Position numbers and translations under genes: made by a program | Shown here: positions 1,814 through 42,198 of the stretch, piece by piece | Numbering within the stretch: the first letter of the stretch is position 1 | Layout of the letters: each line of letters starts with the position of its first letter | From: an uncultured Bauldia sp. | Lineage (GTDB): Bacteria > Pseudomonadota > Alphaproteobacteria > Rhizobiales > Kaistiaceae | Assembly (NCBI GenBank): GCA_964641825.1 | Contig: CAZXKZ010000001.1 | Location: 1 to 45,654, forward strand | Length of the DNA stretch: 45,654 nucleotides | Direction: 5' to 3' | The notes under the pieces: generated by a model | Seen by the model: only the letters and a program-made list of their open reading frames with translations | Told to the model about the DNA's origin: nothing | The model's database searches: none

Positions 1814-2146
1814 ATGACCACTTCACAGCGACTACACCCGAAGGCCGAGAGCATGTATCGGTACATCATCCGGTATAAGCGGCTGCACGGGGGCGACAGT
1901 CCGAGCCGGCGCGAGATCGCCTCGGCGATTGGGCTGCCGTCCGTGTCGATGGTGCAGCATCACCTCCTGGCGCTGGAATCGGCCGGTCGAATCACGCGGC
2001 CGAAGCGTGGCAAGGCGCGAATGATCGCTATTCCCGGGGCGGAGTGGCGGTTCAGCGAACTGCCGGAGAGTGACCAGAACAAATGTGCGCTCTGTGGCGT
2101 TGAAGAAGCGGCCGATCTGCCTGAAGGGGGAAGAAAAGTGGGGTAA
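1814..2146 (+). CDS. LexA-N-terminal-like winged-helix DNA-binding protein
   Basis: SPSRREIASAIGLPSVSMVQHHLLALESAGRITR resembles the LexA DNA-binding domain. The ATG at 1814 is preferred over the upstream TTG at 1793. Confidence 0.55.
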   Translation: MTTSQRLHPKAESMYRYIIRYKRLHGGDSPSRREIASAIGLPSVSMVQHHLLALESAGRITRPKRGKARMIAIPGAEWRFSELPESDQNKCALCGVEEAADLPEGGRKVG

Positions 2147-2166
2147 AGGTGGGGTGAGATTAGCTT

Positions 2167-10337: not shown

Positions 10338-10742
10338 ATGGCAAATCTGACGATTACCAAAGCCCGGCCGGTGGAGACGGTGATGCAGTTCACCGGCCCG
10401 GCCGTGGAGGCGATTGCCGCCGGACAGCGCTGCCGCTTCGATGCATCGACCGGCAAGATCGCGCTGGGCAACGGCACGACCGCGGCCGAGGTCAAGCGTG
10501 GCGGCATCGCCACGCGCGCCGCCGCGGCGGGCGAGACGCTGACGATCATCAACCAGGGCATCGTCGACGTGGGCGACGCGCTCGACGCGCTGAGCTTCGG
10601 CGACGACATCTACGTGTCCGACACCGACGGTACGTTCTCGACGGCTGTCGGCGATAGCACGGTCGACGTCATCGTCGGTATGGTCGTCCCCGGTTGGGGG
10701 CACACGACGGCCGACAAGCTGCTGTGGCTGTTCGGCAACTAG
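10338..10742 (+). CDS. head decoration-like protein (DUF2190-like)
   Basis: 134 aa between scaffold and capsid genes. The G/A/T-rich beta-type sequence resembles the DUF2190 family. Confidence 0.45.
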   Translation: MANLTITKARPVETVMQFTGPAVEAIAAGQRCRFDASTGKIALGNGTTAAEVKRGGIATRAAAAGETLTIINQGIVDVGDALDALSFGDDIYVSDTDGTFSTAVGDSTVDVIVGMVVPGWGHTTADKLLWLFGN

Positions 10743-10755
10743 GAGACGATGAAAG

Positions 10756-11826
10756 ATGGCTAACCTGAACAGCTACGGATTTTTGTCCCTGGCCGATATC
10801 GCCGCCGACCGCGTGGCGAACGGCAACGTGAGGGTCGTGTCTGAGGCTATCGCCGCGTCCGTCGCCGAACACAACCGGCAGGTGCAGGCGGCCCTGGCCG
10901 AACTGGTCGAGCGCACAACCGACTATATGCGCCGCTACAAGATCGGCGGGGGCGGTACGCTCCAGCCGCTCGACGAGTGGGGCAACCCCAAGCCCGTCCA
11001 GGATGTTGGGCGCTATGACGTCGCGTTCCCGATTCAGGGGGGCGGCACGGCCTGGGGCGACAACCGCGTCAGCCGGGCACTCATGACGGTGTCCGAAGCC
11101 GACCGGTACACACTGGCCGCGCTGCGGCGCGACGCCGACTGGATGAAGCGCCATATCCTGGCCGCGCTGCTGGACAATACCAGCTACACCTACGTCGACC
11201 CGGAGTTCGGCAGCCTGACCGTGCAGCCGCTGGCCAACGGCGACGCCGTGACCTACCTGAAGAAGGACGGCACGCCGGCGACCGACACGCACTACTATGC
11301 CCAGGCCGCGGCCATCGCCGACGGCGCGAACCCGTTCCCGACACTGCTCGATGAATTGAGCGAGCACGTCGAAAACGATGGCCCCTACGTCGCCTACGTG
11401 CCGACGGCGCTGAAGGCGAGCATCATGGGCTTGGCTACGTTCCACGACGTGGCCGACCCGAACATCCGGCTCGGCGACGGCCAGTCGCAGCTCATCGGCT
11501 CCATCGACCGGGGATTTGGCGACAAGCTCATCGGCTACGTCGATCCCGGCGTCTGGGTGGTCGAGTGGTCGGTGCTGCCCGCCACGCACGGGCTGATGGT
11601 AGCGCGCGGCGCATCCACGCCGGCGCTGGCGATGCGCGAATATCCCTCGCCCGCGTTGCAGGGCCTATTCGTTGAGAACCACTCGCCGGACGGCAACCTG
11701 AACGAGTACCGCATGATCCGCTACGCCGGGTTCGGCGCGCTGAATCGCACGGCCGCGCTGGCGTTCTACATCGGCGGCGGCGCTTACACGATTCCGACCG
11801 GCTACACCACGCCGCTGGCCGTTTAG
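10756..11826 (+). CDS. major capsid protein (putative)
   Basis: 356 aa in the canonical position after the scaffold and decoration genes. Confidence 0.65.
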   Translation: MANLNSYGFLSLADIAADRVANGNVRVVSEAIAASVAEHNRQVQAALAELVERTTDYMRRYKIGGGGTLQPLDEWGNPKPVQDVGRYDVAFPIQGGGTAWGDNRVSRALMTVSEADRYTLAALRRDADWMKRHILAALLDNTSYTYVDPEFGSLTVQPLANGDAVTYLKKDGTPATDTHYYAQAAAIADGANPFPTLLDELSEHVENDGPYVAYVPTALKASIMGLATFHDVADPNIRLGDGQSQLIGSIDRGFGDKLIGYVDPGVWVVEWSVLPATHGLMVARGASTPALAMREYPSPALQGLFVENHSPDGNLNEYRMIRYAGFGALNRTAALAFYIGGGAYTIPTGYTTPLAV

Positions 11827-22566: not shown

Positions 22567-22581
22567 GGTGAGTCAATGAAC

Positions 22582-23238
22582 TTAAGGCATTTCGCCTGTC
22601 TTAATCCAGTGTCTCCCGGCAAAACGCAAGCGCCGAACATTGCGCGCCAGATTTTCGGCCGGTGTAACTGGTTCCATGTGATCCGGGTTGACGCACATTG
22701 GATTACAGCAAAGGTGATCGAGTTCGTAGCCATCTGGTATAGGGTCTTTATGCAGCTCGTAAAGCCAGCGGTGCGCCAGTTTGTGCTTGCGGGTTTTTGT
22801 TTCTTTATCCCAGATGTTGACCTGCGGACGTTTCGTGTTTTGAACCGTTCGCTGCCATATCCAGCATCCGGTCTCATTCTCGACGGTGTACATCTGGCCG
22901 GAAAGAACCCGATGACTATGACCTGGAAGGAATCGAGCTGGATGCCCTTGCGCCAAGCCTTTTGCGCTATTAGTTCGTTTGGATATGGGAGCAGGTTGCC
23001 CGCAACCACACAAGCACAAACCTTCTTCATTGGGAGAATTCGGACGGTCAAGCCCGCGAACAATATGCCAGTTTTCACCACGTTTAAATTTAGCGCGGCA
23101 CTCTCGGCATATTTCGCGCCGTTTTGGGGTATGACGCCCGGCCGGGATATTGGAATAAACATCAAACGCATCGCGAGACAGAACGCGCTTGCATTTTTTA
23201 CATTTACAACTGTCTTTAATTGCCCCTCTTGCGGGCAT
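22582..23238 (-). CDS. HNH homing endonuclease
   Basis: C-terminal ELDHLCCNPMCVNPDHMEPVTPAENL (HNH_3-type signature). The ATG at 23238 is preceded by AGGAGA. Opposite strand and visibly lower GC than flanks. Confidence 0.85.
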   Translation of the reverse strand: MPARGAIKDSCKCKKCKRVLSRDAFDVYSNIPAGRHTPKRREICRECRAKFKRGENWHIVRGLDRPNSPNEEGLCLCGCGQPAPISKRTNSAKGLAQGHPARFLPGHSHRVLSGQMYTVENETGCWIWQRTVQNTKRPQVNIWDKETKTRKHKLAHRWLYELHKDPIPDGYELDHLCCNPMCVNPDHMEPVTPAENLARNVRRLRFAGRHWIKTGEMP

Positions 23239-23276
23239 AAGATGCTCTCCTGATATTGTCTGATGTAATGGCAACG

Positions 23277-27768: not shown

Positions 27769-29172
27769 ATGACCATCTACACCGTAGGCGACGGCGGCGA
27801 CTTTGCCGCCATTCAGGCGGCCATCGACGCGGCCGCCGTGGGTGATGAGGTGCGCGTATTCGAGGGCGTCTACCGCGAAACGGTGGACATCAACAAGGCC
27901 ATCCGCGTCATCGGCGTGCCTGATGCCGTCGTTGACGGCGGTTGGGACGGCGCGACCAAGACGGACACTTTCGGCGGCACGGTGCAGCTCAATGCCGAGG
28001 GCGCTGAGGCTGTCGGCTTGACCATCCGCAACTGCCCCGGCCGCGGCGTGGGCATCGGCGCGAGCTATACCACCGTCAAGGGGTGCACCATCACCGACTG
28101 CTACAAGGGCGGCCTGGGCGCAAATCCCCCCGCCGGGCAGACGTTTACGGGCCTGCTCATCGAGGGTAACACCATCATGCGCGTGGGCCTGGAGCGGCTC
28201 GTTACCAAGCAGGGCAACGTCAACGGGTCGTTTCTCTTCACGGATGTAGTCGATTCTGTCATCCGGGACAACACCATTGCCAACGGCCTGGGTGAAGGCT
28301 TGAACGTGGACCGCAACTCGCGGCGCAACCTCTTTGAGGGCAATACCATCATCAATTGCGCCCACGTGGGCATCTACATCAACTGCGCCCAGGACAATGT
28401 GATCCGGGGGAACACGGTCATCTACTCCGGCGCGGCCAAGCCGGTCGGCAAGGTCGAGGACGCGCCGGCCGGGATTATCATTGGGGATGAGCGCGGCGCG
28501 TCGGGCTCGTTTGCGCCGTCGGCGGGGAATGTCATCGAAGGGAACCTTGTCGTTGGCAACGGGAAACTATTCCAGGTAAGGAATAACCTGCACAACTACA
28601 ACACGTCACTGGATGTGGGGACGCGGGTGGTTGGCAATACGTTCGTCGCCGGGCCAAAAACAGAGCGCGGCGTGGACATTGCCGAGAACGTGCAGGGCAG
28701 GCCGCACGGCGCGGCAACGTTCGCGGAAAACGTGATCGACTGGACGGCCGCGCCGGCGGGGGCCGTGATTGCGGCCCGGGCAGCAGCGCGGATTCAGTTC
28801 CACCACAACGGTTGGACGGTGCGGCCAACGTCGGACGTTCGCGGCGATGGGGACATCATCGGCGATCTGATGCTGGTCAATCCGGCCGCGCCGCTTCACG
28901 CGGAGTGGGACGTGCTCGACGTGGGATTCAACCGCGATAACTACCGGCCGCTGTCGGGGTCGCCGCTCATCGGCGCGGCCAGTGACGGCACGACCATCGG
29001 CGCGCTGGAACCCATCCCCCCGGATGAGCCGGACGAGCCGGTGGACTGGGACGCGCTGGCGAACCGGGCGGCGGCGGCGTATGGGTTGATTGAGGAGTCT
29101 CAGCAGCGGCTATCGGCCGCTCGGGATGAATTGCTATTGTTAATCGGCGTGCTGGATGCCCAGCCGCGCTAA
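27769..29172 (+). CDS. right-handed parallel beta-helix (pectate-lyase fold) protein; depolymerase or lysin candidate
   Basis: Repeated coils such as TIRNCPGRGVGIG, VKGCTITDCYKGG, IEGNTIMRVG, IRDNTIANGLGEG, FEGNTIINCAHVGIYI, IRGNTVIYSG, IEGNLVVGNG. Confidence 0.7.
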   Translation: MTIYTVGDGGDFAAIQAAIDAAAVGDEVRVFEGVYRETVDINKAIRVIGVPDAVVDGGWDGATKTDTFGGTVQLNAEGAEAVGLTIRNCPGRGVGIGASYTTVKGCTITDCYKGGLGANPPAGQTFTGLLIEGNTIMRVGLERLVTKQGNVNGSFLFTDVVDSVIRDNTIANGLGEGLNVDRNSRRNLFEGNTIINCAHVGIYINCAQDNVIRGNTVIYSGAAKPVGKVEDAPAGIIIGDERGASGSFAPSAGNVIEGNLVVGNGKLFQVRNNLHNYNTSLDVGTRVVGNTFVAGPKTERGVDIAENVQGRPHGAATFAENVIDWTAAPAGAVIAARAAARIQFHHNGWTVRPTSDVRGDGDIIGDLMLVNPAAPLHAEWDVLDVGFNRDNYRPLSGSPLIGAASDGTTIGALEPIPPDEPDEPVDWDALANRAAAAYGLIEESQQRLSAARDELLLLIGVLDAQPR

Positions 29173-29211
29173 ATCTGGCCCAGATGGGCAAGGACACATA
29201 AGGTGAGTGTG

Positions 29212-29469
29212 ATGAGTAACGAATCGAAATGGTTGACGGCGATTAGCGGGATCGTGGCGGCCGTTGTGCCGCTGCTGGTGGCCTACGGGGTCATTACCGC
29301 CGAGCAAGGCGAATTGTGGCAGGCGTTGGCGCTGGCCGTGGTCGGCGCGGTCGTGGCGATTGTCGTGCCGGTGACGGTCACGTCGTTGGCGAAAAACTAC
29401 AACGACAATCAGGTGGCGGCGGCGACGGTCGAAATGGAACACGCCCGCATCATGGCAAGGCACGAGTAG
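29212..29469 (+). CDS. two-TM small membrane protein, holin-like
   Basis: WLTAISGIVAAVVPLLVAYGVI and WQALALAVVGAVVAIVVPVTV form two TM segments before a charged C-terminus. AGGTGA lies 5 nt before the ATG. Confidence 0.5.
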   Translation: MSNESKWLTAISGIVAAVVPLLVAYGVITAEQGELWQALALAVVGAVVAIVVPVTVTSLAKNYNDNQVAAATVEMEHARIMARHE

Positions 29470-29475
29470 ACCAAC

Positions 29476-29943
29476 ATGAGACGCCATCTTGCTTATTTGC
29501 GCTACGTGCTGCGCCATAAGTATTTTGTGTGGCGCGGTGGTCGGATTGTTGGCGGTATTCCGTTTTACAGATTGCTGATTCACGATTGGGACAAGTTTCT
29601 GCTCGATGAATGGCTTCCGTATGTGCAGACGTTTTACGCGCACGACGGCAGCAAGCAGTATGTCGAATCGCCGGAGTTTGCCGCCGCGTGGAATCGGCAT
29701 CAGAAGAGAAACCGCCACCATTGGCAATGGTGGATGCTGACATGGGATCGCGGCGAAACAACAACGCTTCCAATGGCCGAAACCGATGTACGGGAAATGG
29801 TAGCGGATTGGATCGGCGCGGGATGGGCCATTGTCGGCAACCCCAACCCAACATCATGGTATCAAGAAAATCGGGCGCGTATGCATCTGCACGAAGAAAC
29901 GCGCGAAATGGTAGAGCGGCTCTTGTCGAATCTGCCCATATAG
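29476..29943 (+). CDS. DUF5662-like conserved phage protein
   Basis: The motif series RHKYFV...LIHDWDKF...AAWNRHQKRNRHHWQWW matches my recollection of that family. Confidence 0.5.
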   Translation: MRRHLAYLRYVLRHKYFVWRGGRIVGGIPFYRLLIHDWDKFLLDEWLPYVQTFYAHDGSKQYVESPEFAAAWNRHQKRNRHHWQWWMLTWDRGETTTLPMAETDVREMVADWIGAGWAIVGNPNPTSWYQENRARMHLHEETREMVERLLSNLPI

Positions 29944-30098
29944 GCTATTCTGGCCGAGCACGAGCGGCCGATTAGCGCCCCGCCGCCGTGTCCCCTCCTG
30001 CGCGGCGGCGGCGTCATGTCGGCGACGGCTTGGAGCGCGTCGGCGGCCTGGGGGGGATAGGCCGCGGATGTAGGCTAGGGTGGTGGCGCCGAGGAGGA

Positions 30099-30425
30099 TC
30101 ATGGCGTGGCCTCATTTTGTTGGGTGTACCATTCATCAGCAATGCGGATGATCATGGCAATCGTTCCTACAATCTCGATACGCACATCCTCATCCACGTT
30201 CTCGAATCCACGCTTGATAGCGCGTCGATCTAGCAAGTTGTGAATAATGCCCCGCGCCGCTGCTACTGCCCAATCGTCGGCTTTTGGTGGTGGGGGTGAC
30301 GGCCAAGACTCTCGCCACTCATCACTGGCATCATATGGATACCATGATGCGCTTAGGAGATCGTGCTTCGCCCCTTCAGAACTCGGAGGCGTTGGACTGT
30401 CTATAAAACCTGTCATTGATGTCAA
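30099..30425 (-). CDS. hypothetical protein
   Basis: 108-aa ORF in the island. Confidence 0.45.
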   Translation of the reverse strand: MTSMTGFIDSPTPPSSEGAKHDLLSASWYPYDASDEWRESWPSPPPPKADDWAVAAARGIIHNLLDRRAIKRGFENVDEDVRIEIVGTIAMIIRIADEWYTQQNEATP

Positions 30426-30433
30426 TCCTCCTT

Positions 30434-30664
30434 TTACCGTTTAGGCGTCAAGTCGAGCCGCTTGACAAAACCAAGTTCTTCGGCCTTGCGCGAACAATCG
30501 TTTTCTTCCTCAAATAGCAAATCTGTTTTGCCATTGGGGAGCGTGATAACCCGAACGTAATGGATGAAAATCATCTCGCCGGATACGGGATGTACCCATC
30601 GCGTCATGGGGTGATGCACAACATCGCAGTATTCACATTGTTCGATATGTCTGTCGTATCTCAT
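30434..30664 (-). CDS. hypothetical protein (Cys/His-containing)
   Basis: 76-aa ORF, 8 nt upstream of the next gene. Confidence 0.45.
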   Translation of the reverse strand: MRYDRHIEQCEYCDVVHHPMTRWVHPVSGEMIFIHYVRVITLPNGKTDLLFEEENDCSRKAEELGFVKRLDLTPKR

Positions 30665-30688
30665 GGCGTGGCCTCGGTGTGGGCGGGG

Positions 30689-31558
30689 CTACGATTCCAA
30701 AATGACGCCTTGCGATAAGGCTCTTTTAGATTTGTAGCTACGCCAATATTCAATAACTTCTTCTGGCACGTCCAAATTAACATATTCTCCTTCGCGAATT
30801 TTCCTGATGGCTATTGTTATGCCCATCCTCTCGTCATTGTAGATACCAAGCCAACTACCACAATTCTTGCGGTTGTAAACAGCATTTCTAAGTGAAGTAT
30901 TCAATCCCATCTCTAGCGCAGTTCGGGGGCTTATCCCATATTGAGATGGGGTTATTTCTAATACGTCCCCAATACGTGACACTTGCACGTGCTGCATATC
31001 AATGAAATCAAAGCGTAATCCTGGAGCGCACATTACATACCATTCCTCATTCACCCACCGCCGCCAATACCCACTCCCATCTAGTGATAGTGAATCCCAA
31101 AGTTGGAATGGATCATAGCTTGGGCTTTGGAAGTGACCTTTATGTGTCATCCGAAATGTAAATGAATCGCCCGGATTCATCGGCTCTTTGCTCTGGACGT
31201 TTCTGTATACACCTTGCTGGTTTGTGTCAGTACTTTCTATTGCTATGGGCAATTGGAATTTCCCTCTCGGCTCGCATACCGTTTCTTGTTCAGGCCGCCG
31301 CTGGTCGTTGGGGAAAGTTGCCTTAATCGTTTCGATAAAGGTTAGTAGTGCGGGGCTTTCCTCGAACCACTCCCCCCGCTTGGCGTACTGAGCAAACGCC
31401 CTATGTAACCCGGCCTCTAAGTCAGCACCACCGGGCATGACCGCCAATAGTTCTAGCTCGTTATGGTGGGATGTCTGAAAACTGGCAAGGCGACGCCACG
31501 GGTCAGCAGATAAACCGATCTTGATATATCCATCGTCACGAATGAAATAAATCGACAT
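30689..31558 (-). CDS. T5orf172/MUG113 (GIY-YIG superfamily) domain protein with an unknown C-terminal domain of about 200 aa
   Basis: N-terminus IYFIRDDGYIKIGLSADPWRRLASFQTSHH...LHRAFAQYAKRGEWFE. GGAG lies 7 nt before the ATG. Confidence 0.7.
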   Translation of the reverse strand: MSIYFIRDDGYIKIGLSADPWRRLASFQTSHHNELELLAVMPGGADLEAGLHRAFAQYAKRGEWFEESPALLTFIETIKATFPNDQRRPEQETVCEPRGKFQLPIAIESTDTNQQGVYRNVQSKEPMNPGDSFTFRMTHKGHFQSPSYDPFQLWDSLSLDGSGYWRRWVNEEWYVMCAPGLRFDFIDMQHVQVSRIGDVLEITPSQYGISPRTALEMGLNTSLRNAVYNRKNCGSWLGIYNDERMGITIAIRKIREGEYVNLDVPEEVIEYWRSYKSKRALSQGVILES

Positions 31559-31569
31559 GATTCACTCCG

Positions 31570-31662
31570 AAAACGCAAAACTGCCACCTTTACTCTGTGA
31601 AGTGTCTAGGTTCACAGCCGGGGCGTGCCCGTGAGTAAAGGTGGCAGGTTTGCCACAGAGTA
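31570..31662 (-). promoter_or_regulatory. structured 5-prime leader: terminator (15-bp stem enclosing two hairpins, then UUUUGCGUUUU) with a competing 9-bp antiterminator pairing
   Basis: 31581-31595 pairs perfectly with 31633-31647. 31591-31599 pairs perfectly with 31654-31662. The U-tract is the reverse complement of 31570-31580. Confidence 0.5.
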
Positions 31663-31715
31663 TGCAATTGTCGGGCAACAAAAACGCCCCGAAACCATGA
31701 ACCTAGACAATAGAA

Positions 31716-31744
31716 AGTATATCATGGCTGGGTCCCGACCGCAA
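31716..31744 (-). promoter_or_regulatory. candidate promoter TTGCGG-N17-TATACT feeding the structured leader
   Basis: Reverse complement read directly. The -10 box is identical to those at 38256, 42217 and 42285. Confidence 0.3.
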
Positions 31745-31928
31745 GCGGTTCGACCGCTTCACTTGCCACTAATCGCAGATTTCCGTCAATCAGTTCAAAG
31801 CCGGGCATAAAGACGAGGATGCCCCGATTGCCACTAATCAGTGCATGGCGTACGATTACATCATGCCCCGCGTCCCTGACTTCCAACGCCATATTTGCCA
31901 CTAGTGCCACGGCGTCAAATCTACTCAT
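31722..31928 (-). CDS. hypothetical protein (start uncertain, ORF extends to 31985)
   Basis: The ATG at 31928 gives an 8-nt overlap with the upstream gene stop. Confidence 0.4.
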   Translation of the reverse strand: MSRFDAVALVANMALEVRDAGHDVIVRHALISGNRGILVFMPGFELIDGNLRLVASEAVEPLAVGTQP

Positions 31929-32277
31929 GCGATCTAAGCCGGGCTTCTTCTTCTCTTGCATCATCGAGTTCTCCGAGCTTGACATATTGAGACCCCTTTT
32001 TGTAAGCTACCTTACCGGACTTGTTATAATAAGTAACGGCGCGGCCCGCGTCGTCTTTTGCCTGATAGCGCCAGCGCCAATAGCCGTTTGAGTTTTGCTC
32101 CAATCGCCAGCCTTTCACCGGGCGCTTGACTTCTTCCTGTAAGACTATATCGGCGTCAGTCTCTTGATAAGGTGGCAAATCGCGCTCTATGGCGTGTTTT
32201 ACTCTGTTGACACTAGTGGCAACTGACCGGCCACTAGTGTCAACTCTCTCCATTCCCCCCGGCGCGTCCATTCCCAT
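31921..32277 (-). CDS. hypothetical protein
   Basis: 118-aa ORF, K/E/R-rich. Confidence 0.45.
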   Translation of the reverse strand: MGMDAPGGMERVDTSGRSVATSVNRVKHAIERDLPPYQETDADIVLQEEVKRPVKGWRLEQNSNGYWRWRYQAKDDAGRAVTYYNKSGKVAYKKGSQYVKLGELDDAREEEARLRSHE

Positions 32278-32327
32278 CCGCGCCGGGGCCGTCTCTCGCC
32301 GTCGCTTCGCTTCATCAGCGGCGACGG

Positions 32328-33155
32328 CTAACGAAAATCCTCCGGGCCTCCCGTTCGTCCTAGCGGCTTGGCCGTCGGGCCGTTAGGCTGCCCCTGCCCC
32401 GGCGCGGCCGATACGTCGGTGGCGTGGTGCGCGGCGGTCTGAGTAGAATTACCTGTATCGACGGGTTGGGCCAGGGACAGGAACGCGGCGACTTGCGCGG
32501 CTTGGTCGGCCGTCAGTTGCGGGCGTTCGGTGGTCGTGATGCGCGGGCCGGATTGCTGGCCGCGCTCCAGCAGGTCGGGGATGCCGTTGCGGTCACTGTC
32601 GGCGCGGATGTCGCTCAACAGTTGAGCGAACATCGTGGCGCTCATCTCATCGGCTAGTCCCTGTTGGGCGGCAATGCGCCGGTTCTTAAGCGCCGTCAAC
32701 GCGCCCTCGAAGATAGCGTCCTTTTCGGATTGGATCGCCATTTCTTTCCGCGCTTCATTGTCGCCCAGGTGGAACAGGACGACGCCGGCGACGTTGATGA
32801 TTGTCCAGACGCCGATAGCCCAGACCGCCACGGTTCCAAGCGATTCCGGCGCGGCGGTCAGGGTCTGGCCGTCGAGCAGGATTTCAGCGATAACCATTAA
32901 GCCAACGCCCAGCAGGTTGACGATGGTCAGAATGAGCGCCGTCGCCCGTTGAATGTTGCCCTGGGCATGGCTAAGAAAGACGAACATCCACGCGATCAGC
33001 CCGCCGTCAAACACGACCAGCGCGAGATAGGGCACGGCCCAAAACGAATTGGGCAGCACCGATTGGATAAACGATACAGTTAGCGATGCCGTCCACGTGA
33101 ACAGGATAACGGCGACCATGTAAAACAGGTATTTAGCGATAGTGCGATTTAACAT
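32328..33155 (-). CDS. integral membrane protein (about 4 TM) with a soluble C-terminal half
   Basis: Four long hydrophobic segments in aa 1-150. GGAGA lies 8 nt upstream of the ATG. Confidence 0.6.
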   Translation of the reverse strand: MLNRTIAKYLFYMVAVILFTWTASLTVSFIQSVLPNSFWAVPYLALVVFDGGLIAWMFVFLSHAQGNIQRATALILTIVNLLGVGLMVIAEILLDGQTLTAAPESLGTVAVWAIGVWTIINVAGVVLFHLGDNEARKEMAIQSEKDAIFEGALTALKNRRIAAQQGLADEMSATMFAQLLSDIRADSDRNGIPDLLERGQQSGPRITTTERPQLTADQAAQVAAFLSLAQPVDTGNSTQTAAHHATDVSAAPGQGQPNGPTAKPLGRTGGPEDFR

Positions 33156-33197
33156 TTTGTGTCTCCATTTGCATCTAAACTGCTACAATCATCGGCG

Positions 33198-33250
33198 GCC
33201 GGGTGGGTCTCCATTCCCGGCCTGCGCCCCCGGCCGATACCGGGGGCGCT
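33198..33250. terminator. two adjacent GC-rich hairpins (7-bp and 10-bp stems) at the island border
   Basis: ggccggg...cccggcc and gcgcccccgg ccgata ccgggggcgc followed by ttctgtt. Confidence 0.35.
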
Positions 33251-33280
33251 TCTGTTGGGGGTGGGGAGGGCTAGTCCGGG

Positions 33281-33472
33281 TTAGCCAGGGCCTCCGTTGA
33301 TGACGGCCACGGCGTCGAACTTGGCGAGGTAGTCGGGGAGGGGGCGGCCGATCGGCGTCTGGAGGAGGCCGCGGGCCTTAATGTCGGCGGCGAGGGATGC
33401 GACGTCGCCGTAGTCCTGGCGGCGCTGGAAGGGGTTATCGAGCACATAGTTTAAGGGGACGTGGATGAGCAT
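33281..33472 (-). pseudogene. ParB N-terminal-like fragment (63 aa, ends before the usual GERR region)
   Basis: VPLNYVLDNPFQRRQDYGDVASLAADIKARGLLQTPIGRP resembles the start of the ParB/Srx fold. The ORF stops abruptly at the low-GC border. Confidence 0.35.
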
Positions 33473-33476
33473 GGGT

Positions 33477-33830
33477 TTACTCCGTCAGTTGGGAAACCAT
33501 GATCCACGTGGACTCTCTATATTGAGTGGTGAGGATCATGATGCGATGAGAAGGTGCGTCAACGGGCACTTCATAACCTGAGAGAATGGACCCGCCGCTT
33601 CTCGTCGGCCCGTCAATGGCCTGCCTGTTGGCGTTTTGGATGTAGGGGTCGTCAGTGCCGAAGTCTCCGCGCACGTGTCGCTCGATGTAAGGCGCGAAGA
33701 ATGCGTAATGGTCGATATACCCGTTATCGATTGCGTAACCTTCAGCCTCGGGGGTGAATACGAAAACGCCGAGCCTGAACAGATGCCCTTCGGGCAGCTC
33801 CTCTTTGGATTTCAATCGTTTCTTTGTCAT
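33477..33830 (-). CDS. conserved hypothetical protein (RHxxGDFG...N..A...ILSGY motif)
   Basis: 117-aa ORF. The motif pattern is reminiscent of small plasmid/phage proteins of unknown function. Confidence 0.5.
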   Translation of the reverse strand: MTKKRLKSKEELPEGHLFRLGVFVFTPEAEGYAIDNGYIDHYAFFAPYIERHVRGDFGTDDPYIQNANRQAIDGPTRSGGSILSGYEVPVDAPSHRIMILTTQYRESTWIMVSQLTE

Positions 33831-33850
33831 GGTTGGTTCTCCTTCGGGTT

Positions 33851-33872
33851 AGATGTTGGCGCGCCAACATCT
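33851..33872. repeat. 22-bp perfect palindrome agatgttggcgcgccaacatct (intergenic), the symmetric member of the GTTGGCGCGC motif family
   Basis: Direct reading. The sequence is its own reverse complement. Confidence 0.9.
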
Positions 33873-33880
33873 GGCGCTAA

Positions 33881-34153
33881 TCATTCGCGGGGGGGGGTAG
33901 AGTTTCGGGCGCGTTCGAGGATGCGCGCGGCGGTGGGGTTGGTGATTGCGTCGGCGTTGATTGCGTCGGCGGTTCGGCCGCTCTCGCGGAGGACGCGAGC
34001 GAGCAGGTAGGCGGCCTGGAGTTCAGGCGTGCGGTATTGCTCGGCGGCGAGGGCGGCCAGGGCCGCGTAGTCGGCGGGCAGGAGGGTCAGCGTGATCTTG
34101 CGGGCTGCTTCGCCGGCGACGGGTCCAGTGTTGTTGGGAATTCCTTTGGGCAT
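33881..34153 (-). CDS. hypothetical protein (possible ribbon-helix-helix)
   Basis: 90 aa. KITLTLLPADYAAL is a beta-strand-then-helix pattern. Confidence 0.45.
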   Translation of the reverse strand: MPKGIPNNTGPVAGEAARKITLTLLPADYAALAALAAEQYRTPELQAAYLLARVLRESGRTADAINADAITNPTAARILERARNSTPPRE

Positions 34154-34177: not shown

Positions 34178-34753
34178 TCAGGCGTAATTCCAGACAGGAT
34201 CGATTCGGAGCGGATTGGCGATGGGGCCGTTGCGCTCAGAGGGCTCGATGTAGGCCAGGCCGAGAGCGGCGAAGATGTCGTGCTCTTCTGGGGTGGCCAG
34301 AAGACGGCCGGATTCGTAGAGGCGGCCGTCGCGGGGCTGGATGGTGTTGGGCGCGGCGCCGCCGGCGGCCTGGGAGGTGACGAGCCAGCGGGAGAACTCC
34401 CAGGAGCCGGTGCGGATGGTGAAGATGCTGCCCCAGGTCTCGGCCGTGGGCAGAAAGAGATCGACCGTATGGCGGCCGTAGGCGAACTGCTGGTAGCGCT
34501 CGCCGCGCCTGGTGAAGGTGATGCCCTTGCTGTCGAGGAAGACATCGAGCGGGGTCTTTCCTTTGACGGGCGCGCCGAAGAGATCGGTCGGCCGGATCGG
34601 GATGGCGACGATCTCGATGTCGCCGACCAGGGGCCGCTCGCGGCGGAGGCTGCCGGCGATCTCGATGCGGAGGCAGTGCGGCCGGAGGGCGGCGACGAGG
34701 CGTTCGGCGACGGGCAGGACGACAGAGAGAGGCTGCTTGGTTGCGGTGCTCAT
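34178..34753 (-). CDS. minimal family X DNA polymerase / Pol-beta-like nucleotidyltransferase (191 aa)
   Basis: IAGSLRRERPLVGDIEIV (GSxRRxxxxxxDxE), VDLF...IRTGSWEFSRWL (TGS motif), and C-terminal IFAALGLAYIEPSERN. Confidence 0.7.
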   Translation of the reverse strand: MSTATKQPLSVVLPVAERLVAALRPHCLRIEIAGSLRRERPLVGDIEIVAIPIRPTDLFGAPVKGKTPLDVFLDSKGITFTRRGERYQQFAYGRHTVDLFLPTAETWGSIFTIRTGSWEFSRWLVTSQAAGGAAPNTIQPRDGRLYESGRLLATPEEHDIFAALGLAYIEPSERNGPIANPLRIDPVWNYA

Positions 34754-35325
34754 GACGGGTTCTCCGGGCCGACGGTGAGGTCGAGGGTGAGGGTGAGGCG
34801 GATGGCGCCGCGGCCGTCGAGCCGGTCGAGGTTGGCGATGAGGTCGCTGAGCTGGCGCAGGGCGTCCGGGCCGGCGGCCGGGGGGGCCGGGCGGTCGCGG
34901 TAGCGGGCGGCGGTGGTGGCGCCGCGGGGGCGGATGGGCAGGCCGGCCTGGGCGAAGTAGCGCGAGAGGGTGGCCGAGCTGGTGTTGTGGCGGCGGGCCA
35001 GCTCGGCAAGGGAGAGTTCTTCCTCGACGTATTGCCGGTGGAGGGCGAGGAGCTGATCCTCGGTGAAGAGTTTCCTGGGCATGGCGGTGAGCTGCTCCTG
35101 AATATGGCGCCGGATGTAGTCCGGCTCGAGGCCGAGGCCGTCGCAGTCATCCTCGAAGTTGCGGGACCGGAAGTAGGTCATGGCGTCGAGCACCTGGGGG
35201 TAGGAGCCGTAGAGGACGTCGCGGGCGGCGCGGCGGATGACGGCGCGGATGAGGCGCTGCTCCGGCGAGAGGGCGCACGCGCGGGCGCTCAGAGTGAGAG
35301 ACGGGTCGCCGGGGTGGGGGATCAT
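34750..35325 (-). CDS. HTH-containing hypothetical protein
   Basis: ATGA overlap with the upstream gene. LSLAELARRHNTSSATLSRYFAQAG is HTH-like. Confidence 0.5.
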   Translation of the reverse strand: MIPHPGDPSLTLSARACALSPEQRLIRAVIRRAARDVLYGSYPQVLDAMTYFRSRNFEDDCDGLGLEPDYIRRHIQEQLTAMPRKLFTEDQLLALHRQYVEEELSLAELARRHNTSSATLSRYFAQAGLPIRPRGATTAARYRDRPAPPAAGPDALRQLSDLIANLDRLDGRGAIRLTLTLDLTVGPENPS

Positions 35326-36602
35326 CGGCGCACCTCGTGCAGCGCGGCCGCGGGTTCGGCGCGGACGGCGTAGGTGACGGGGAGGGGGCGGCCGGCGATG
35401 GCGTCGACGGTGCGCTGGATGATGGGGTGGAGGCGGTTGGCGAGCCAGTCGACGGCGTGGTCGTTGGCGACGTGGACGGTGAGGCCGTCGGGCCGGGCGG
35501 CGGCGGTGGAGCCGCGGAGCCACGAGGCGAAGGTGGCGCGGGTCATCTGCATCTCCAGTTCGGCCAGGGCGGCGGGCCAGTGGGGCCAGGGGTCAATGGG
35601 CAGCGGCGGGCGCTCGGCGGCCGGGGGCGGCGCGGCCGTTGGCGGGTCGGGCGGCGGGATGACGCGGGTGGGCATGAGCTCGGGCGGGCCGAGTTCGCCG
35701 CCGGCGGCGGCGTAGACGGCGGCGGCGGTGGCCAGGGGCAGGCTGGGGAATTCGTCGTCGTCGAGGCGGTCGGCGGTGGGGTAGCCGGCCTGGGCGAAGT
35801 CGAGGACCCATTCGAGGCGGCCGAGGAGACGGCCGCGGGCCGAGTCGTCGAGGGCGAGCCAGCCGCGGGCGAGGGCGAGGAGGTCGACGCGCGGGCGCTT
35901 GCCGCTGCGCCACTGGGCGCGGACGAGGCCGACGGGGTTGTGGATGCGGGAGCCGCTCTCGGCCGATTTGAGTTTGACCCAGTAGGCCCAGGCGAGGAGG
36001 GTGGGCGGGTCGAGGGTCGTGCGCTCTTTGGGGGTGAGGGCGTCGTCGAATTCGATCCAGTCGAGGATGGGCGCGAGGGGATCGGCAGCAGCAACAGCAG
36101 CAGGGGCGGAGGCGGCCGGGGGTGCTGGTGCTGTTGGGGGTTCCTCTTTGGGTTCTGTTGATGGTTCTATGGGGGTTCTGGGTGATCGTGGATCACCATT
36201 AGGGTGATCCACGATCACCATTGATGGTGCATGTGGATCACCATTGTGGTGATCGTGGTTCACCACGGCGGCCGGTTGTGGTGATCGTGGTTCACCATTG
36301 GACTCGGCGGCAACGGCCGCGAGCATGGCTTGTTGGTTGACCCAGAAGGCGTTGCTGGCGTGGAGGCCTCCGACTTTGTAGCGGGATTCGCGTCGGATAA
36401 AGCCTTCGCGTTCCAGCTCGGCGACGGTATTGATGACGGTGCGGCGGTTCATGCCGCACCGTTTGGCGATCGTCTCGTAGGTTGGCCAGCAGTATCCGTC
36501 GCGGTCGTTGGCCTGGTCGGCCAGCGACAGGAGTACCAGCTTCTTGAGCGGCTTGCCCTGAAAGTTGATCTTCCAGGCGATTGAAAACAGTTCTATGCTC
36601 AT
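35322..36602 (-). CDS. replication initiator/organiser (N-terminal winged-helix HTH, C-terminal DnaA_N-like segment)
   Basis: N-terminus LLSLADQANDRDGYCWPTYETIAKRCGMNRRTVINTVAELEREGFI. C-terminus TRATFASWLRG...LTVHVANDHAVDWLANRLHPIIQRTV. Iterons lie inside the gene. Confidence 0.6.
   Translation of the reverse strand: MSIELFSIAWKINFQGKPLKKLVLLSLADQANDRDGYCWPTYETIAKRCGMNRRTVINTVAELEREGFIRRESRYKVGGLHASNAFWVNQQAMLAAVAAESNGEPRSPQPAAVVNHDHHNGDPHAPSMVIVDHPNGDPRSPRTPIEPSTEPKEEPPTAPAPPAASAPAAVAAADPLAPILDWIEFDDALTPKERTTLDPPTLLAWAYWVKLKSAESGSRIHNPVGLVRAQWRSGKRPRVDLLALARGWLALDDSARGRLLGRLEWVLDFAQAGYPTADRLDDDEFPSLPLATAAAVYAAAGGELGPPELMPTRVIPPPDPPTAAPPPAAERPPLPIDPWPHWPAALAELEMQMTRATFASWLRGSTAAARPDGLTVHVANDHAVDWLANRLHPIIQRTVDAIAGRPLPVTYAVRAEPAAALHEVRR
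36181..36299. repeat. five iterons of about 20 bp (GGTGATCGTGGWTCACCATT), candidate ori, containing 7 GATC sites
   Basis: Copies at 36181-36200, 36203-36222, 36226-36245, 36248-36267 and 36280-36299. Each has an internal 7-3-7 palindrome GGTGATC nnn GATCACC. Confidence 0.8.
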
Positions 36603-36754: not shown

Positions 36755-37672
36755 ATGAACCTGACTGAAGCCGTGGAGGCGTTTCTGGCGGCGCAGGCGG
36801 GAGAGGTCGCTGTGTCTACGCGGCGGTGGTATGGCCGCCGTCTGTCGGCATTCTGCGAGTTCGTCGGACCGATAGCGCTCGATGACGTGGCCGTGGGGTC
36901 GATCCGCGCGTTTCGCGCCCACCTGGTGGAGCGCGAGTTGAGCGGGCACTACATTCACGGCTGCCAGCGGGCGTTGCGCCGGCTGTTCGCGTGGCTGGTC
37001 GACGAAGGGCTGGCGACTCGCAACGTGGCCAAGGACGTGCCGCTGGTGCGACTTCCCCCGCAAGCCCCAAAGGCCCTGAGTGATGACGATTTGGGACGCC
37101 TGTTGGCGCGCCTGCCGTATGAGGACGTGAGGGACCGGGCGATTATCCTGCTGCTGGCCGACACGGGTTGCCGGGTCGGCGGGCTGTGCAGCCTGACGCT
37201 GGAGTCATTGGACCTGCCGAACCGGTGTGCCGTGGTCATCGAGAAGGGCCGGCGCGGCCGTCGGGTCTACTTCAACGATCTCACGGCCGAGACGATCGCG
37301 CTGTATCTGGCGGTCCGGCCGGAGAGCGAGGCCCCTGCCCTGTTCCTGTCGCGCTCGGGGTCGCCGCTGACGACCAACGGGGTGCGGCTGATGCTGGAGC
37401 GGGTGGGCAAGCGGGCGGGGGTGAAGGGGCGGTGTAACGCGCACTCTTTCCGACACGCCTTTGCCCGGTCGTTCCTGCGCAACGGCGGCAACCTGGCGGC
37501 TCTGGGCCGGCTGCTGGGCCACGCGCCGGGGTCGGCCGTGACGGCTCGCTATTATGCGGTGTGGGATGACCGGGAGCTGCAGGAGTACCACCAACGGTTC
37601 AGCCCGCTGGCGAATGTGAACGGCCGAGCGGGGGACAACCAGTCCCCGGCTCATGAGAGCAAGGGGCTATAG
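36755..37672 (+). CDS. int: tyrosine recombinase / phage integrase (XerC/D-like)
   Basis: ADTGCRVGG (Arg), HSFRHAFAR (H-x-x-R) and LLGH...TARYY (His, Tyr nucleophile). Confidence 0.9.
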   Translation: MNLTEAVEAFLAAQAGEVAVSTRRWYGRRLSAFCEFVGPIALDDVAVGSIRAFRAHLVERELSGHYIHGCQRALRRLFAWLVDEGLATRNVAKDVPLVRLPPQAPKALSDDDLGRLLARLPYEDVRDRAIILLLADTGCRVGGLCSLTLESLDLPNRCAVVIEKGRRGRRVYFNDLTAETIALYLAVRPESEAPALFLSRSGSPLTTNGVRLMLERVGKRAGVKGRCNAHSFRHAFARSFLRNGGNLAALGRLLGHAPGSAVTARYYAVWDDRELQEYHQRFSPLANVNGRAGDNQSPAHESKGL

Positions 37673-41128: not shown

Positions 41129-41278
41129 TCATAGCTGCTGGTCTGAAGGTGGGGGCGCGGCCGGCGGCTGCTTGTTGCGTCTGACCAGCCAGACGACAAG
41201 GGCGATTGCCAGGACGGGCACAAGCAGGCACAACAAACCGCCGATCGATAAGAGTTCAGGCCATCCGATTGGACCCAT
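41129..41278 (-). CDS. 49-aa single-TM peptide with a basic, Pro-rich tail
   Basis: The ATG at 41278 is preceded by AGGAGGAACCTCATC. LLSIGGLLCLLVPVLAIALVVWLV forms the TM segment. Confidence 0.5.
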   Translation of the reverse strand: MGPIGWPELLSIGGLLCLLVPVLAIALVVWLVRRNKQPPAAPPPSDQQL

Positions 41279-41996
41279 GATGAGGTTCCTCCTGATTGGG
41301 TTTAGTCGGCAGTCTTGGGTTGAGCCGGTCGACAATCGGTCGACCATCTTGATCCATCACAATGGGCGGGAAGTCTTCCCATGGTTCGAAGGCGGGATGA
41401 ATTGTCACCGATGTGGCGTGAGCCAGAGCCCCGAAGAAGTGAACATACGGCGTTGCAATGTACCAACATTGCTCGCGGGTAAACGCCGCGCGAGCAACTT
41501 CGACCCCCTCGCCCGACAGAGGATAAGTGAAAGTTACGTTCAGCGTGTCAAACTGCACATCCGCCTCTACCACTGCGGCGATCACAAGGTAGGTATGAAA
41601 CTTAATATGGGCAATGACATCTTCGCCTTTCGCATGTTGGGGAACATGCCGGTTAACTGAAATCACTCCGCCTAGTGGTTCAATAACGAAGTTTGGTTGA
41701 AAAGCAGGCTCATTAATGGTTTGTTTCATTGGCGCAGGCGGTCGCGGAATGATTCCTGTCTCAATGAATTGGCGAAGCTCCGGTGTGACTTCGTACCATT
41801 CACCACGAATGCGAGATTTATGAAACTGCCGCTGAAAAGCCTTTTCCTTTTCGGTATCGCCTGGAATGGTATGAAGGAGGGAGATCGGGAATGGGCTGCC
41901 ATTCTGGAGGGCCGCTAATCGGGCACGCAGGTTGGTCGTAGTGCCTATCTTGATGTAGTTACCAGCTTGAACAAAGTAAACGACACTTTCACTCAT
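41256..41996 (-). CDS. T5orf172/MUG113 (GIY-YIG superfamily) domain protein with an unknown C-terminal domain of about 160 aa
   Basis: VYFVQAGNYIKIGTTTNLRARLAALQNGSPFP...FQRQFHKSRIRGEWYE. The start overlaps the RHH stop (ATGAGTGA). Confidence 0.7.
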   Translation of the reverse strand: MSESVVYFVQAGNYIKIGTTTNLRARLAALQNGSPFPISLLHTIPGDTEKEKAFQRQFHKSRIRGEWYEVTPELRQFIETGIIPRPPAPMKQTINEPAFQPNFVIEPLGGVISVNRHVPQHAKGEDVIAHIKFHTYLVIAAVVEADVQFDTLNVTFTYPLSGEGVEVARAAFTREQCWYIATPYVHFFGALAHATSVTIHPAFEPWEDFPPIVMDQDGRPIVDRLNPRLPTKPNQEEPHHGSNRMA

Positions 41997-42198
41997 TGGG
42001 TTTGCTTTCCCCTGTTTTCTCGCGTCGACCACCCCACTCGACTGCCCAGTCAACCGGGTCGCCCTGCTCTTCAAGCCACTCGCCCAAAATCGAGCGCATC
42101 AGCCCCGATAGTGTTGCGCCACGTCGAGCGGCCTGGCGCTTGAGCGCGGCGTGCAGATCGTCGGTCAGAATTACAATTACCCTCTTTTTTTCGGCCAT
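41989..42198 (-). CDS. ribbon-helix-helix (CopG/Arc-like) DNA-binding protein; repressor or antitoxin candidate
   Basis: MAEKKRVIVILTDDLHAALKRQAARRGATLSGLMRSILGEWL is a classic beta-alpha-alpha RHH pattern. It is the distal part of the spurious long ORF 41989..42873. Confidence 0.7.
   Translation of the reverse strand: MAEKKRVIVILTDDLHAALKRQAARRGATLSGLMRSILGEWLEEQGDPVDWAVEWGGRREKTGESKPNE

Follow-up and report, generated by a model that had tools for sequence, protein, structure and literature searches.

The window analysed here is a stretch of 45,654 nucleotides, a whole contig (C1) of a metagenome-assembled genome (MAG) binned as an uncultured Bauldia sp., and it is the complete genome of a temperate tailed phage. 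Where two operons of this phage meet head on lies a group of mostly small genes of low G+C content (GC), which a sequence-only reading had described as a single island of ~3.8 kb inserted into a ParB-like gene. We propose that the locus is a mosaic, not one island: genes that are fixtures of the phage lineage are followed by a slot for exchangeable cargo, and the cargo in the window is a mobile nuclease gene of the T5orf172 family, gated by its own leader RNA. We consider this account probable, if only by a little. The content of the slot would be a self-contained unit, made up of a promoter-like element, a 140-nt leader and the nuclease gene, and followed by two orphan open reading frames (ORFs). 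The parts of the unit are listed below. Here and elsewhere, z scores for composition compare a gene with 47 background genes (GC 0.649 +/- 0.046; GC at third codon positions, or GC3, 0.809 +/- 0.067), and structural models are AlphaFold2 (AF2) models with their per-residue confidence (pLDDT).

31716..31744, minus strand: promoter-like element TTGCGG-N17-TATACT, which overlaps the upstream gene's stop codon (sequence and alignment)
31573..31711, minus strand: conserved structured leader RNA of ~140 nt with two alternative folds (alignment, covariation, folding)
30689..31558, minus strand: predicted nuclease of 289 aa, T5orf172/MUG113, GIY-YIG superfamily (Pfam; GC 0.47, z -3.9)
31304-31558, minus strand: N-terminal domain of the nuclease, residues 1-85 (Pfam, AF2)
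within the nuclease, minus strand: disordered linker, residues 90-121 (AF2, pLDDT <50)
30692-31186, minus strand: conserved C-terminal domain of the nuclease, residues 125-289, 165 aa (alignment, AF2)
30697..30721, minus strand: weak terminator-like hairpin with a T-run at the 3' end of the nuclease ORF (pattern scan only)

The nuclease

In both sequence and fold, the 289-aa protein belongs with the T5orf172/GIY-YIG proteins. Pfam returned MUG113 (PF13455) at 35.9 bits (cut-off 22.3) and T5orf172 (PF10544) at 26.0 bits over residues 3-69 (cut-off 20). The AF2 model has a mean pLDDT of 81, which reaches ~90 in both domains and falls below 50 for residues 90-121, and in a Foldseek search of BFVD only the N-terminal domain matched T5orf172/MUG113/GIY-YIG proteins (E 3e-7 to 1e-5, rmsd 1-2 A over ~80 residues). 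The protein has ~30 full-length homologous clusters at 45-76% identity. When 27 full-length sequences were aligned, the mean column identity was 63%, with both domains conserved and the linker variable. Among the N-terminal residues invariant in these 27 sequences are Y4, K13, G15, R23, H52 and E63, and Y4, R23 and E63 are, judging from the family, the putative catalytic residues of the GIY-YIG type; a dependence on the glutamate has been reported in one T5orf172 case (PMC10448857).

The second domain is well folded in the model and matches nothing known. The C-terminal domain had no Pfam, PHROG-function, NCBIfam, PDB or BFVD match, so that no recognised DNA-binding module was found in it, and a search of 400 sampled genomes from the phylum did not find it. 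Neither domain had a significant PDB match, either in a fold search with the whole protein or in a profile search against PDB sequences, and a scan of viral contigs with the T5orf172 protein as single protein found nothing. The description of this gene in the sequence-only reading, as a T5orf172/GIY-YIG protein with a novel C-terminal domain, therefore stands.

A second gene of this type is present in the window:

41256-42074, minus strand: second T5orf172/MUG113 gene, 272 aa (Pfam E 2e-11)

Its product is 36% identical to the 289-aa nuclease, in the N-terminal domain only. The gene lies in the third GC dip of the window (GC 0.52, z -2.8) and adjoins a ribbon-helix-helix-like ORF.

T5orf172 has been described as a GIY-YIG subfamily of putative homing endonuclease genes, in which a terminal nuclease domain is combined with swappable DNA-binding modules, and free-standing members have been catalogued in a range of phages that includes ICP1 and the T5-like group (PMC10448857). 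In the conflict between phages and their satellites, domesticated forms play a part (PMC8096241, PMC8263062). The layout of the window protein, a domain swap seen in two relatives (below), the patchy distribution and the two copies in one genome are consistent with this modular homing-type picture, without amounting to proof. The window gene is most likely a mobile gene of the homing-endonuclease type, or a recently domesticated derivative that would cut the DNA of competing phages or satellites.

The leader RNA

The 87-aa gene that precedes the nuclease gene is separated from the nuclease ATG (31558) by 163 nt, and 140 of these are conserved. We compared the window with related loci (designated by L numbers), all of which are metagenomic and most of which are short contigs. 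The leader is 82-85% identical at the nucleotide level to the leaders of L030, L035-37, L053 and L054, which represent four other lineages; in the DNA of the nuclease N-terminal domain the identity falls to 67-71%, and the window gene upstream of the leader has no homology to theirs. The leader is the best-conserved segment of the locus. The predicted -10 element is TATAAT in four of the five lineages, with the upstream stop codon in or beside it. At its 3' end the leader reads GGUGGCAGUUUUGCGUUUU, after which come a Shine-Dalgarno (SD) sequence (GGAG) and the nuclease ATG.

The minimum free energy of the leader has a z of -5.7 against shuffled sequence. A structure of 43 pairs fits the five distinct leader sequences with 99.1% of cells paired, and six pairs are changed on both sides, compared with 2.0 +/- 1.0 in shuffled alignments (none of 500 reached six) and 0-1 in slid controls. 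Four of these pairs are in a long hairpin, P1-P2, and two are in a 14-bp helix formed by the apical loop and the 3' tail, which has one further, wobble-compatible change. The leader can adopt two folds. Fold A is the long hairpin P1-P2-P3 of 29 bp, in which P1 pairs 31698-31709 with 31599-31610. Fold B is the 14-bp helix (31632-31645 with 31578-31591) followed by a U-run at about 31570-31578, an arrangement that resembles a terminator. Under constrained folding, the energies of the two differ by no more than 1-8 kcal/mol in any of the five sequences. The tail begins 7 nt after the base of the 29-bp stack, and we therefore take the two structures to be alternatives; a pseudoknot, in which the helix 67-80/121-134 would coexist with P1-P3, was rejected on geometry, as a 7-nt linker should not be able to span a 29-bp stack.

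Rfam 15 gave no match to the leader at E <= 1 (29000-34000, both strands), and a group I intron or known riboswitch was ruled out for that reason. With a covariance model of the leader (R1), the window-type leader was found only in these phage contigs, and no copy was present in 86 genomes of the bin's family. An exact-pattern scan of viral contigs with the leader motif gave two chance matches, in unrelated low-GC DNA.

T5orf172 and MUG113 genes of other relatives have leaders of other types:

L066 9196-9313: other-type leader
L090 10463-10584: other-type leader

These differ in sequence and follow the same plan, with TATAAT, a long 5' stem, an SD sequence and the ATG. In both, the 3' strand of the 5' stem sits inside a GC-rich hairpin of the terminator type. 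The 5' strand of the first stem recurs between SD and ATG, which hints at another pairing in which the start would be concealed. A further arrangement is seen in a different T5orf172 subgroup, upstream of the T5orf172 genes of L031 (690-760) and L048-L052. Here a near-perfect palindrome of ~60 nt (ATTCTAGCA...TGCTAGAAT) runs up to the start codon and has an extended -10-like TGnTAGAAT within its reach; it may be an operator, in which case the transcript could be leaderless.

A variable slot at the end of the operon

Beyond the 87-aa gene, or the 86-aa gene that takes its place in a sub-lineage of relatives, the gene content differs from one relative to the next:

Window, L030, L035-37 and L066: 289-aa-type T5orf172 protein (43-61% identical)
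L053 and L054: homologous T5orf172 N-terminal domain with the same leader, and an unrelated C-terminal part (218-225 aa)
L090: 165-aa MUG113 protein
L089 (prophage of Candidatus Promineifilum breve), 10654-11361: unrelated 235-aa protein, GC 0.47
L040: homology stops ~40-55 nt before the end of the 86-aa gene, with no nuclease after it

The 235-aa protein of L089 had no Pfam or PADLOC match. A T5orf172 homologue was absent within the flanks of all eight distinct loci among L038-L047 that were fetched through the membrane protein (described below); loci found through the nuclease are biased towards carrying it. The cluster counts, ~30 for the nuclease and >218 for the membrane protein, point in the same direction as the variability of the slot. 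In the seven fetched loci with a 289-aa-type protein the T5orf172 gene has a GC of 0.51-0.53, and most neighbours have 0.60-0.70. The unit thus follows the 86/87-aa gene in several lineages, is missing from L040 and is replaced in L089; the genomes are too diverged for a clean empty site.

The leader and the upstream gene do not travel together. The window pairs an upstream gene of the 87-aa type with a leader of the L030 type, and L066 and L090 pair that gene with different leaders, so that the mosaic joint lies at the promoter. On this comparison of sequences, the unit of promoter-like element, leader and T5orf172 gene has been recombined onto an upstream gene other than that found in the carriers of the same leader. 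We infer that the nuclease travels as a module with its leader.

Base composition and the genes conserved in the lineage

In 1-kb windows between 29.5 and 32.5 kb the GC is 0.48-0.56, compared with 0.64 for the whole contig, and two more dips occur at 22-23.5 kb and 41-42.5 kb. Gene by gene, GC and codon usage are not uniform: six consecutive genes at 29476-32277 are outliers (GC z -2.5 to -3.9, GC3 z -3.1 to -5.0, codon-adaptation z -2.4 to -4.2), namely the DUF5662 gene on the plus strand, the 108-aa and 76-aa ORFs, the T5orf172 gene, the 87-aa gene and the 118-aa gene. The spacers that separate these low-GC genes are GC-rich (0.74-0.83). The membrane gene at 32328-33155 has the native composition of the phage (GC 0.61, z -0.8). 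The drop in GC that had been described over ~3.8 kb is therefore real, and its extent is smaller: the aberrant block covers ~2.8 kb, on both strands, and stops short of the right border that had been named. Elsewhere in the window, a 225-aa ORF in the tail region (22576-23253, plus strand) is a strong outlier as well (GC 0.51, GC3 z -3.4); it had no Pfam or PHROG match and is probably another swapped-in gene.

Upstream of the slot are the following genes:

32328..33155, minus strand: membrane protein with four transmembrane (TM) segments, a long helix on the cytoplasmic side and a low-complexity tail that ends in GQGxxNG (AF2, homologues)
31921..32277, minus strand: 118-aa basic protein with a GW...GYWRWRY motif (homologues)
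31722..31985, minus strand: 87-aa gene, overlapping the 118-aa gene by 65 nt (GC 0.53; homologues)

The AF2 model of the membrane protein shows four long N-terminal helices followed by a helix of 50 residues, and the protein has >218 homologous clusters at 48-93% identity, with no PDB match in a fold search and no family match. Its gene is syntenic in seven fetched phage or prophage contexts (L038-L043, L047). In every longer context (L038, L039, L040, L042 and L043; of these L038, L039, L042 and L043 are phage-sized contigs of 41-43 kb) it lies a few genes past the divergent integrase and the replication initiator, and in relatives it often directly follows a DNA methylase. The 118-aa protein had no match in the family libraries scanned, Pfam and NCBIfam among them, and its motif would fit a small protein that binds DNA. 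Its 12 homologous clusters include one from Ca. Promineifilum breve. Homologues of the 118-aa protein (48-66% identical; 60% in L089) and of the 87-aa protein (61-74%; 74% in L089) are present in L066, L089 and L090, and both L066 (a 40-kb viral contig) and L090 (a 39-kb contig) have the membrane protein and the 118-like and 87-like genes in the same order. The real start of the 87-aa gene may be the methionine at residue 20.

The existence of these genes, and of the T5orf172/MUG113 gene with its scores above the Pfam cut-offs, agrees with the earlier description; their status does not. The membrane, 118-aa and 87-aa genes are fixtures of the lineage at the distal end of the operon on the integrase and replication side, and they are not cargo. 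With its more than 200 clusters, the membrane gene is a constant and unstudied component of these phages.

In another sub-lineage (L030, L035-37, L040, L053 and L054) the 300-450 nt that follow the membrane gene appear to be a gap, and they hide a conserved basic protein that gene callers have missed (RRGWIEYAKRG...YAYRRRWKK...). It overlaps the start of the next gene, as in the 118-aa/87-aa pair of the window, and the conserved 86-aa gene comes next. Its coordinates are:

L030 1382-1609
L053 3452-3679
L054 351-578
L035 1965-2162
L040 10919-11116
L042 11005-11163

The genes of the 118-aa and 87-aa type are low in GC in the relatives too (0.51-0.63, compared with 0.62-0.63 overall), and low GC is therefore no reliable mark of recent acquisition at this locus. 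This raises the question whether low GC could be an intrinsic, selected property of long-resident genes and their leader, linked to low expression, silencing or RNA structure, and no mark of foreign origin, with the T5orf172 protein acting as a DNA-binding regulator of the lineage that no longer cleaves. The conservation of the two small genes would agree with this, as would the fact that low GC persists in homologues that have diverged to ~50% amino acid identity. The original description of T5orf172, moreover, was of a domain that binds DNA, and genes of this kind gave rise to the repressor CapR (PMC8096241). Against a non-cleaving resident stand the invariance of the catalytic-set residues Y4, R23 and E63 across the 27 sequences, the presence or absence of the gene and the swapping of its C-terminal part among relatives, which point to mobility, and the two copies in separate GC dips of one genome. 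We regard this explanation as quite unlikely.

The recurrent order of the genes also invites a reading in which the membrane protein, the 118-aa and 87-aa proteins, the leader and the nuclease form one prophage system for exclusion or abortive infection. The membrane protein would sense or block an incoming phage, and the nuclease, once freed from its leader, would degrade the invading DNA or trigger abortive infection. The order is found in diverged lineages (window, L030, L035-37, L053, L066 and L090); it may also be plain inherited synteny. A promoter-like element of its own and a gated leader are what one would expect for a toxic effector, and T5orf172 domains are indeed used in phage-satellite conflicts (PMC8096241, PMC8263062). 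However, the eight loci fetched via the membrane protein without any T5orf172 gene downstream, together with the unrelated cargo in the slot of one relative, mean that the parts of such a cassette are separable, and no member of the cassette matches a known defence family; the weak PADLOC match to PDC-S57 (E 1e-4) concerns only the paralogue at 41256-42074. A single exclusion system is possible, and we doubt it.

The ParB-like remnant

The operon also includes, directly upstream of the membrane gene, the following features:

33281..33472, minus strand: 63-aa ORF, N-terminal remnant of a ParB-N/HTH_ParB gene of ~600 aa (phmmer, BLASTP)
33224-33249 and 33197-33222, minus strand: pair of GC-rich hairpins separating the ParB remnant from the membrane gene (pattern scan; fold z -3.6)

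Against PF02195 (ParB_N) the 63-aa ORF scored 16.4 bits (E 0.0096), below the gathering score of 26.3. In a phmmer scan of 1.8 billion representatives, its residues 1-47 matched residues 1-47 of many proteins of 580-615 aa, with E values down to 2e-14, and also several proteins of ~300 aa. The protein P0160 (593 aa; E 2e-14) is 77% identical over 43 aa by BLASTP, and P0163 is collinear with the ORF at 52% identity over 69 aa. The ORF ends just before the arginine motif (F)GHRRLRA, the GxRR patch, of the full-length homologues, and no trace of the remaining ~530 residues was found elsewhere in the window. On this alignment, in which the N-terminal homology is clear, the ORF is to be read as a remnant and not as a functional member of the ParB family. 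An internal in-frame deletion was also considered, as residues 42-55 resemble residues 267-280 of P0160; it is unnecessary, because the 63 aa are collinear with the first 69 of P0163.

The truncation and the two hairpins had both been noted in the sequence-only reading, correctly, and had been explained by an insertion that took away the rest of the gene. L047, from a Chloroflexota MAG, speaks against that explanation. It has a full-length ParB-like gene of 665 aa, with ParB_N and HTH_ParB domains (HTH, helix-turn-helix; E 1e-19), 180 nt upstream of the homologue of the membrane gene. This makes the membrane gene the ancestral neighbour on the downstream side, and the stump arose by a deletion inside the ParB-like gene, not by the arrival of a block reaching from the membrane gene to the T5orf172 gene. 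On the other side of its ParB-like gene (1911-3384, upstream), L047 encodes two further proteins, one of 326 aa and one of 222 aa whose C-terminal motif is T5orf172-like, so that nuclease genes gather on that side too.

A single horizontally acquired island of ~3.8 kb with anti-phage or superinfection-exclusion cargo, inserted into the ParB-like gene and truncating it, is thus very improbable. In its favour are the genuine dip in GC, the truncation of the ParB-like ORF exactly where the border was placed, and the location, since cargo of this sort typically sits at operon ends in temperate phages. However, the membrane gene at that border has native composition and is a conserved neighbour of the full-length ParB-like gene in L047, it keeps its position in relatives, and the 118-aa and 87-aa genes are conserved as well, including in the Ca. 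P. breve prophage. The block also covers both strands and two operon ends, and PADLOC gave no matches. Synteny largely refutes one island, and the locus shows that low GC by itself misplaces the borders of islands.

Other accessory genes

The remaining features of the region are:

29476..29943, plus strand: DUF5662 gene, the last of the late (lysis) operon (Pfam PF18907, E 3.3e-37; GC 0.53, z -2.5)
29944..30098, no strand: GC-rich spacer where the late and early-left operons converge (GC 0.74)
30099..30425, minus strand: 108-aa orphan ORF (GC3 0.48, z -5.0)
30434..30664, minus strand: 76-aa orphan ORF with a CxxC motif (GC 0.47)
33477..33830, minus strand: 117-aa low-GC orphan ORF, beyond the ParB remnant (GC 0.53, z -2.5)

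The DUF5662 gene is the low-GC gene on the plus strand that had been left undescribed. Its homologues, at <=47% identity, are found in unrelated viral contigs, and it is absent after the holin gene in L031 and L089. Shuffled sequence folds as well as the spacer at 29944-30098. The 76-aa and 108-aa ORFs had no family match and no homologue in any fetched locus; the 117-aa ORF had no family match and no relative in viral contigs.

The evidence supports accessory cargo of deviant composition consisting of the T5orf172 unit, the two orphan ORFs of 76 and 108 aa, and DUF5662. The idea of accessory cargo thus holds for these genes, which are not conserved throughout the relatives, and it fails for the membrane, 118-aa and 87-aa genes, which are. 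As to the function that had been suggested for the cargo, superinfection exclusion or anti-phage defence, PADLOC-DB 2.0 gave no family at E <= 0.01 for any of the ten proteins from 29476 to 34153, and such a role is no more than possible.

The window has one more gene near the region with a counterpart in a relative. At 34178-34753 (minus strand) it encodes a 191-aa protein with a match to the DNA polymerase beta thumb (Pfam E 1.3e-7), and its homologue in L066 has 41% identity. There the gene lies downstream of the nuclease, in the window upstream of it, so that the order of modules is shuffled between relatives.

The phage and its host

The first 48 bases of the window recur at its end, and the contig is therefore a circularly assembled, complete element. 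It is the genome, of ~45.6 kb, of a temperate siphophage. The plus strand up to 29.5 kb encodes TerL (the large terminase), a major head (capsid) protein, a 1602-aa tail protein, a beta-helix protein and a holin. On the minus strand, an operon starts at a Rep-O-like initiator (35322-36602) and extends to 30099, and a tyrosine integrase is encoded at 36755-37672. The region is thus the head-on meeting point of the early-left and the late (lysis) operons. No tRNA gene was present in the window.

The nearest integrated relatives of this phage are prophages of Chloroflexota, with integrases 69-73% identical to that of the window. L040 is a prophage located where a Chloroflexia contig of 485 kb ends (integrase 73% identical). 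L089 is a prophage in the finished genome of Ca. Promineifilum breve (integrase 69%, Dam-like methylase 76% identical), and it keeps the same converging holin/beta-helix/EAD7 lysis cassette after the homologues of the 118-aa and 87-aa genes. Neither the membrane gene nor the leader was found in 86 other genomes of the bin's family, and the bin may therefore not be the host. The phage contig may have been binned with a non-host genome, its closest integrated relatives being those in Ca. P. breve and the Chloroflexia MAG.

Searches of annotated phages by megablast and blastn gave no DNA match to the window, and a DNA search of 60 related genomes gave only short matches at chance level, apart from contig C6 of the same assembly (G000). 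This is a second, distantly related phage contig of 37.7 kb with a GC of 0.62. It has tail genes (41-76% identity), two membrane proteins of the lysis side and the Rep N-terminus in common with the window, in a different arrangement.

Discussion

We favour a mosaic built from lineage fixtures and a cargo slot. A ParB-like gene of ~600 aa has decayed to its stump of 63 aa by a deletion within the gene. The four-TM, 118-aa and 87-aa genes are the fixtures, and the slot beyond the 87-aa gene is where relatives differ. On the opposite strand, the late operon ends in another low-GC accessory gene, DUF5662.

The leader would set the share of transcripts that enter the nuclease gene and so gate a potentially genotoxic nuclease. 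In fold A the U-run has no preceding stem, and transcription would read through into the nuclease gene. In fold B a helix of 14-20 bp would stand directly before the U-run, and transcription would terminate. By the order of synthesis the long hairpin should form first, giving read-through, and anything that holds the 5' strand of this hairpin would favour the terminator fold. Candidates are a ribosome that finishes the upstream ORF 8-12 nt away, or a protein.

Several points weigh against this proposal. A near-identical pair of genomes with and without the unit, which would demonstrate precise insertion or homing, was not found. The C-terminal domain is as conserved as the nuclease domain, which is less typical of the fast-evolving specificity modules of homing enzymes, and it is no recognised DNA-binding domain. 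The non-nuclease gene in the slot of one relative fits a slot for morons in general better than it fits homing. The -35 element is weak and the promoter falls below the threshold of a consensus scan; the terminator would be unusual, as its helix encloses a loop of 40 nt; and the covariation of the leader is drawn from five distinct sequences. Finally, the 118-aa and 87-aa genes are conserved in the lineage and yet low in GC, so that low GC alone is no sign of recent acquisition.

A more far-reaching version would make the leader a new class of two-state RNA that responds to a factor or ligand and licenses the nuclease, the whole forming, with the membrane protein and the two small proteins, an undescribed exclusion module of Chloroflexota phages, and the C-terminal domain being a new fold for nucleic acid recognition. 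This we think unlikely.

As an island the locus is ordinary: temperate phages collect AT-rich accessory genes at operon ends, and a decayed gene at the border is common. The parts that deserve a bench test are the gated nuclease unit and its unmatched second domain. Leader and nuclease together would be a testable case of RNA-gated nuclease expression, in a phage group, that of Chloroflexota in activated sludge, whose gene regulation is almost wholly unexplored. An RNA that is more conserved than the proteins around it, with covariation for two exclusive folds, is part of the value of the finding. The analysis also documents a T5orf172 family that extends the catalogue of modular phage nucleases shaping recombination boundaries and phage-phage conflict.

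Comparison with known systems

Lambda RexB is one of the small multi-pass membrane proteins through which prophages exert exclusion. The window protein is likewise a four-helix membrane protein of a temperate phage, encoded outside the structural and lysis modules; it has no sequence or fold similarity to them and is conserved as a fixture of its lineage. The ParB-N/HTH_ParB proteins include those of chromosome and plasmid partition, Noc, KorB-like proteins and the phage proteins with a 'ParB-like nuclease domain'. The first 47 residues of the 63-aa ORF align with them, whereas the GxRR arginine patch, the HTH and the C-terminal regions are missing from it.

In T4, RNA hairpins delay the translation of I-TevI. 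Like such hairpins, attenuators and the expression platforms of riboswitches, the window leader has mutually exclusive helices, one of them before a U-run, directly upstream of the SD sequence and ATG of a nuclease gene. It differs in having no Rfam family, in a terminator helix that encloses a 40-nt loop, and in being represented by five sequence variants.

Morons, according to Juhala and Hendrix, are said to be autonomous units of promoter, gene and terminator with a deviant composition, in lambdoid phages such as HK97. The T5orf172 unit shows the deviant composition (GC 0.47, z -3.9, far from that of its neighbours) and the patchiness (L038-L047, L089) of a moron, and it shares with morons the promoter-like element, the terminator-like hairpin and the location at an operon end. 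In contrast to them, its promoter and terminator are predicted from the sequence, and it includes a two-state leader of 140 nt.

CapR and Odn, from the contest between ICP1 and PLE, also join a T5orf172 domain to a specificity domain, and they serve a mobile element against a competitor (PMC8096241, PMC8263062). Beyond the T5orf172 domain they have no sequence similarity to the window nuclease.

Classical GIY-YIG enzymes include I-TevI and the Seg proteins. A further comparison is with the free-standing homing endonuclease genes of the T5orf172 family (PMC10448857). The second domain of the window protein is neither a zinc finger of the CapR/DUF723/DUF4397 kind nor a recognised DNA-binding fold; its gene, a putative homing gene, adjoins accessory genes, not essential ones; and its long conserved leader RNA sets it apart. 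Features in common with these genes are the architecture of the protein, with the nuclease domain at one end, then a linker and another domain; the exchange of that other domain among relatives that retain the nuclease domain; a patchy presence with several copies per genome; and the invariant Tyr, Arg and Glu residues.

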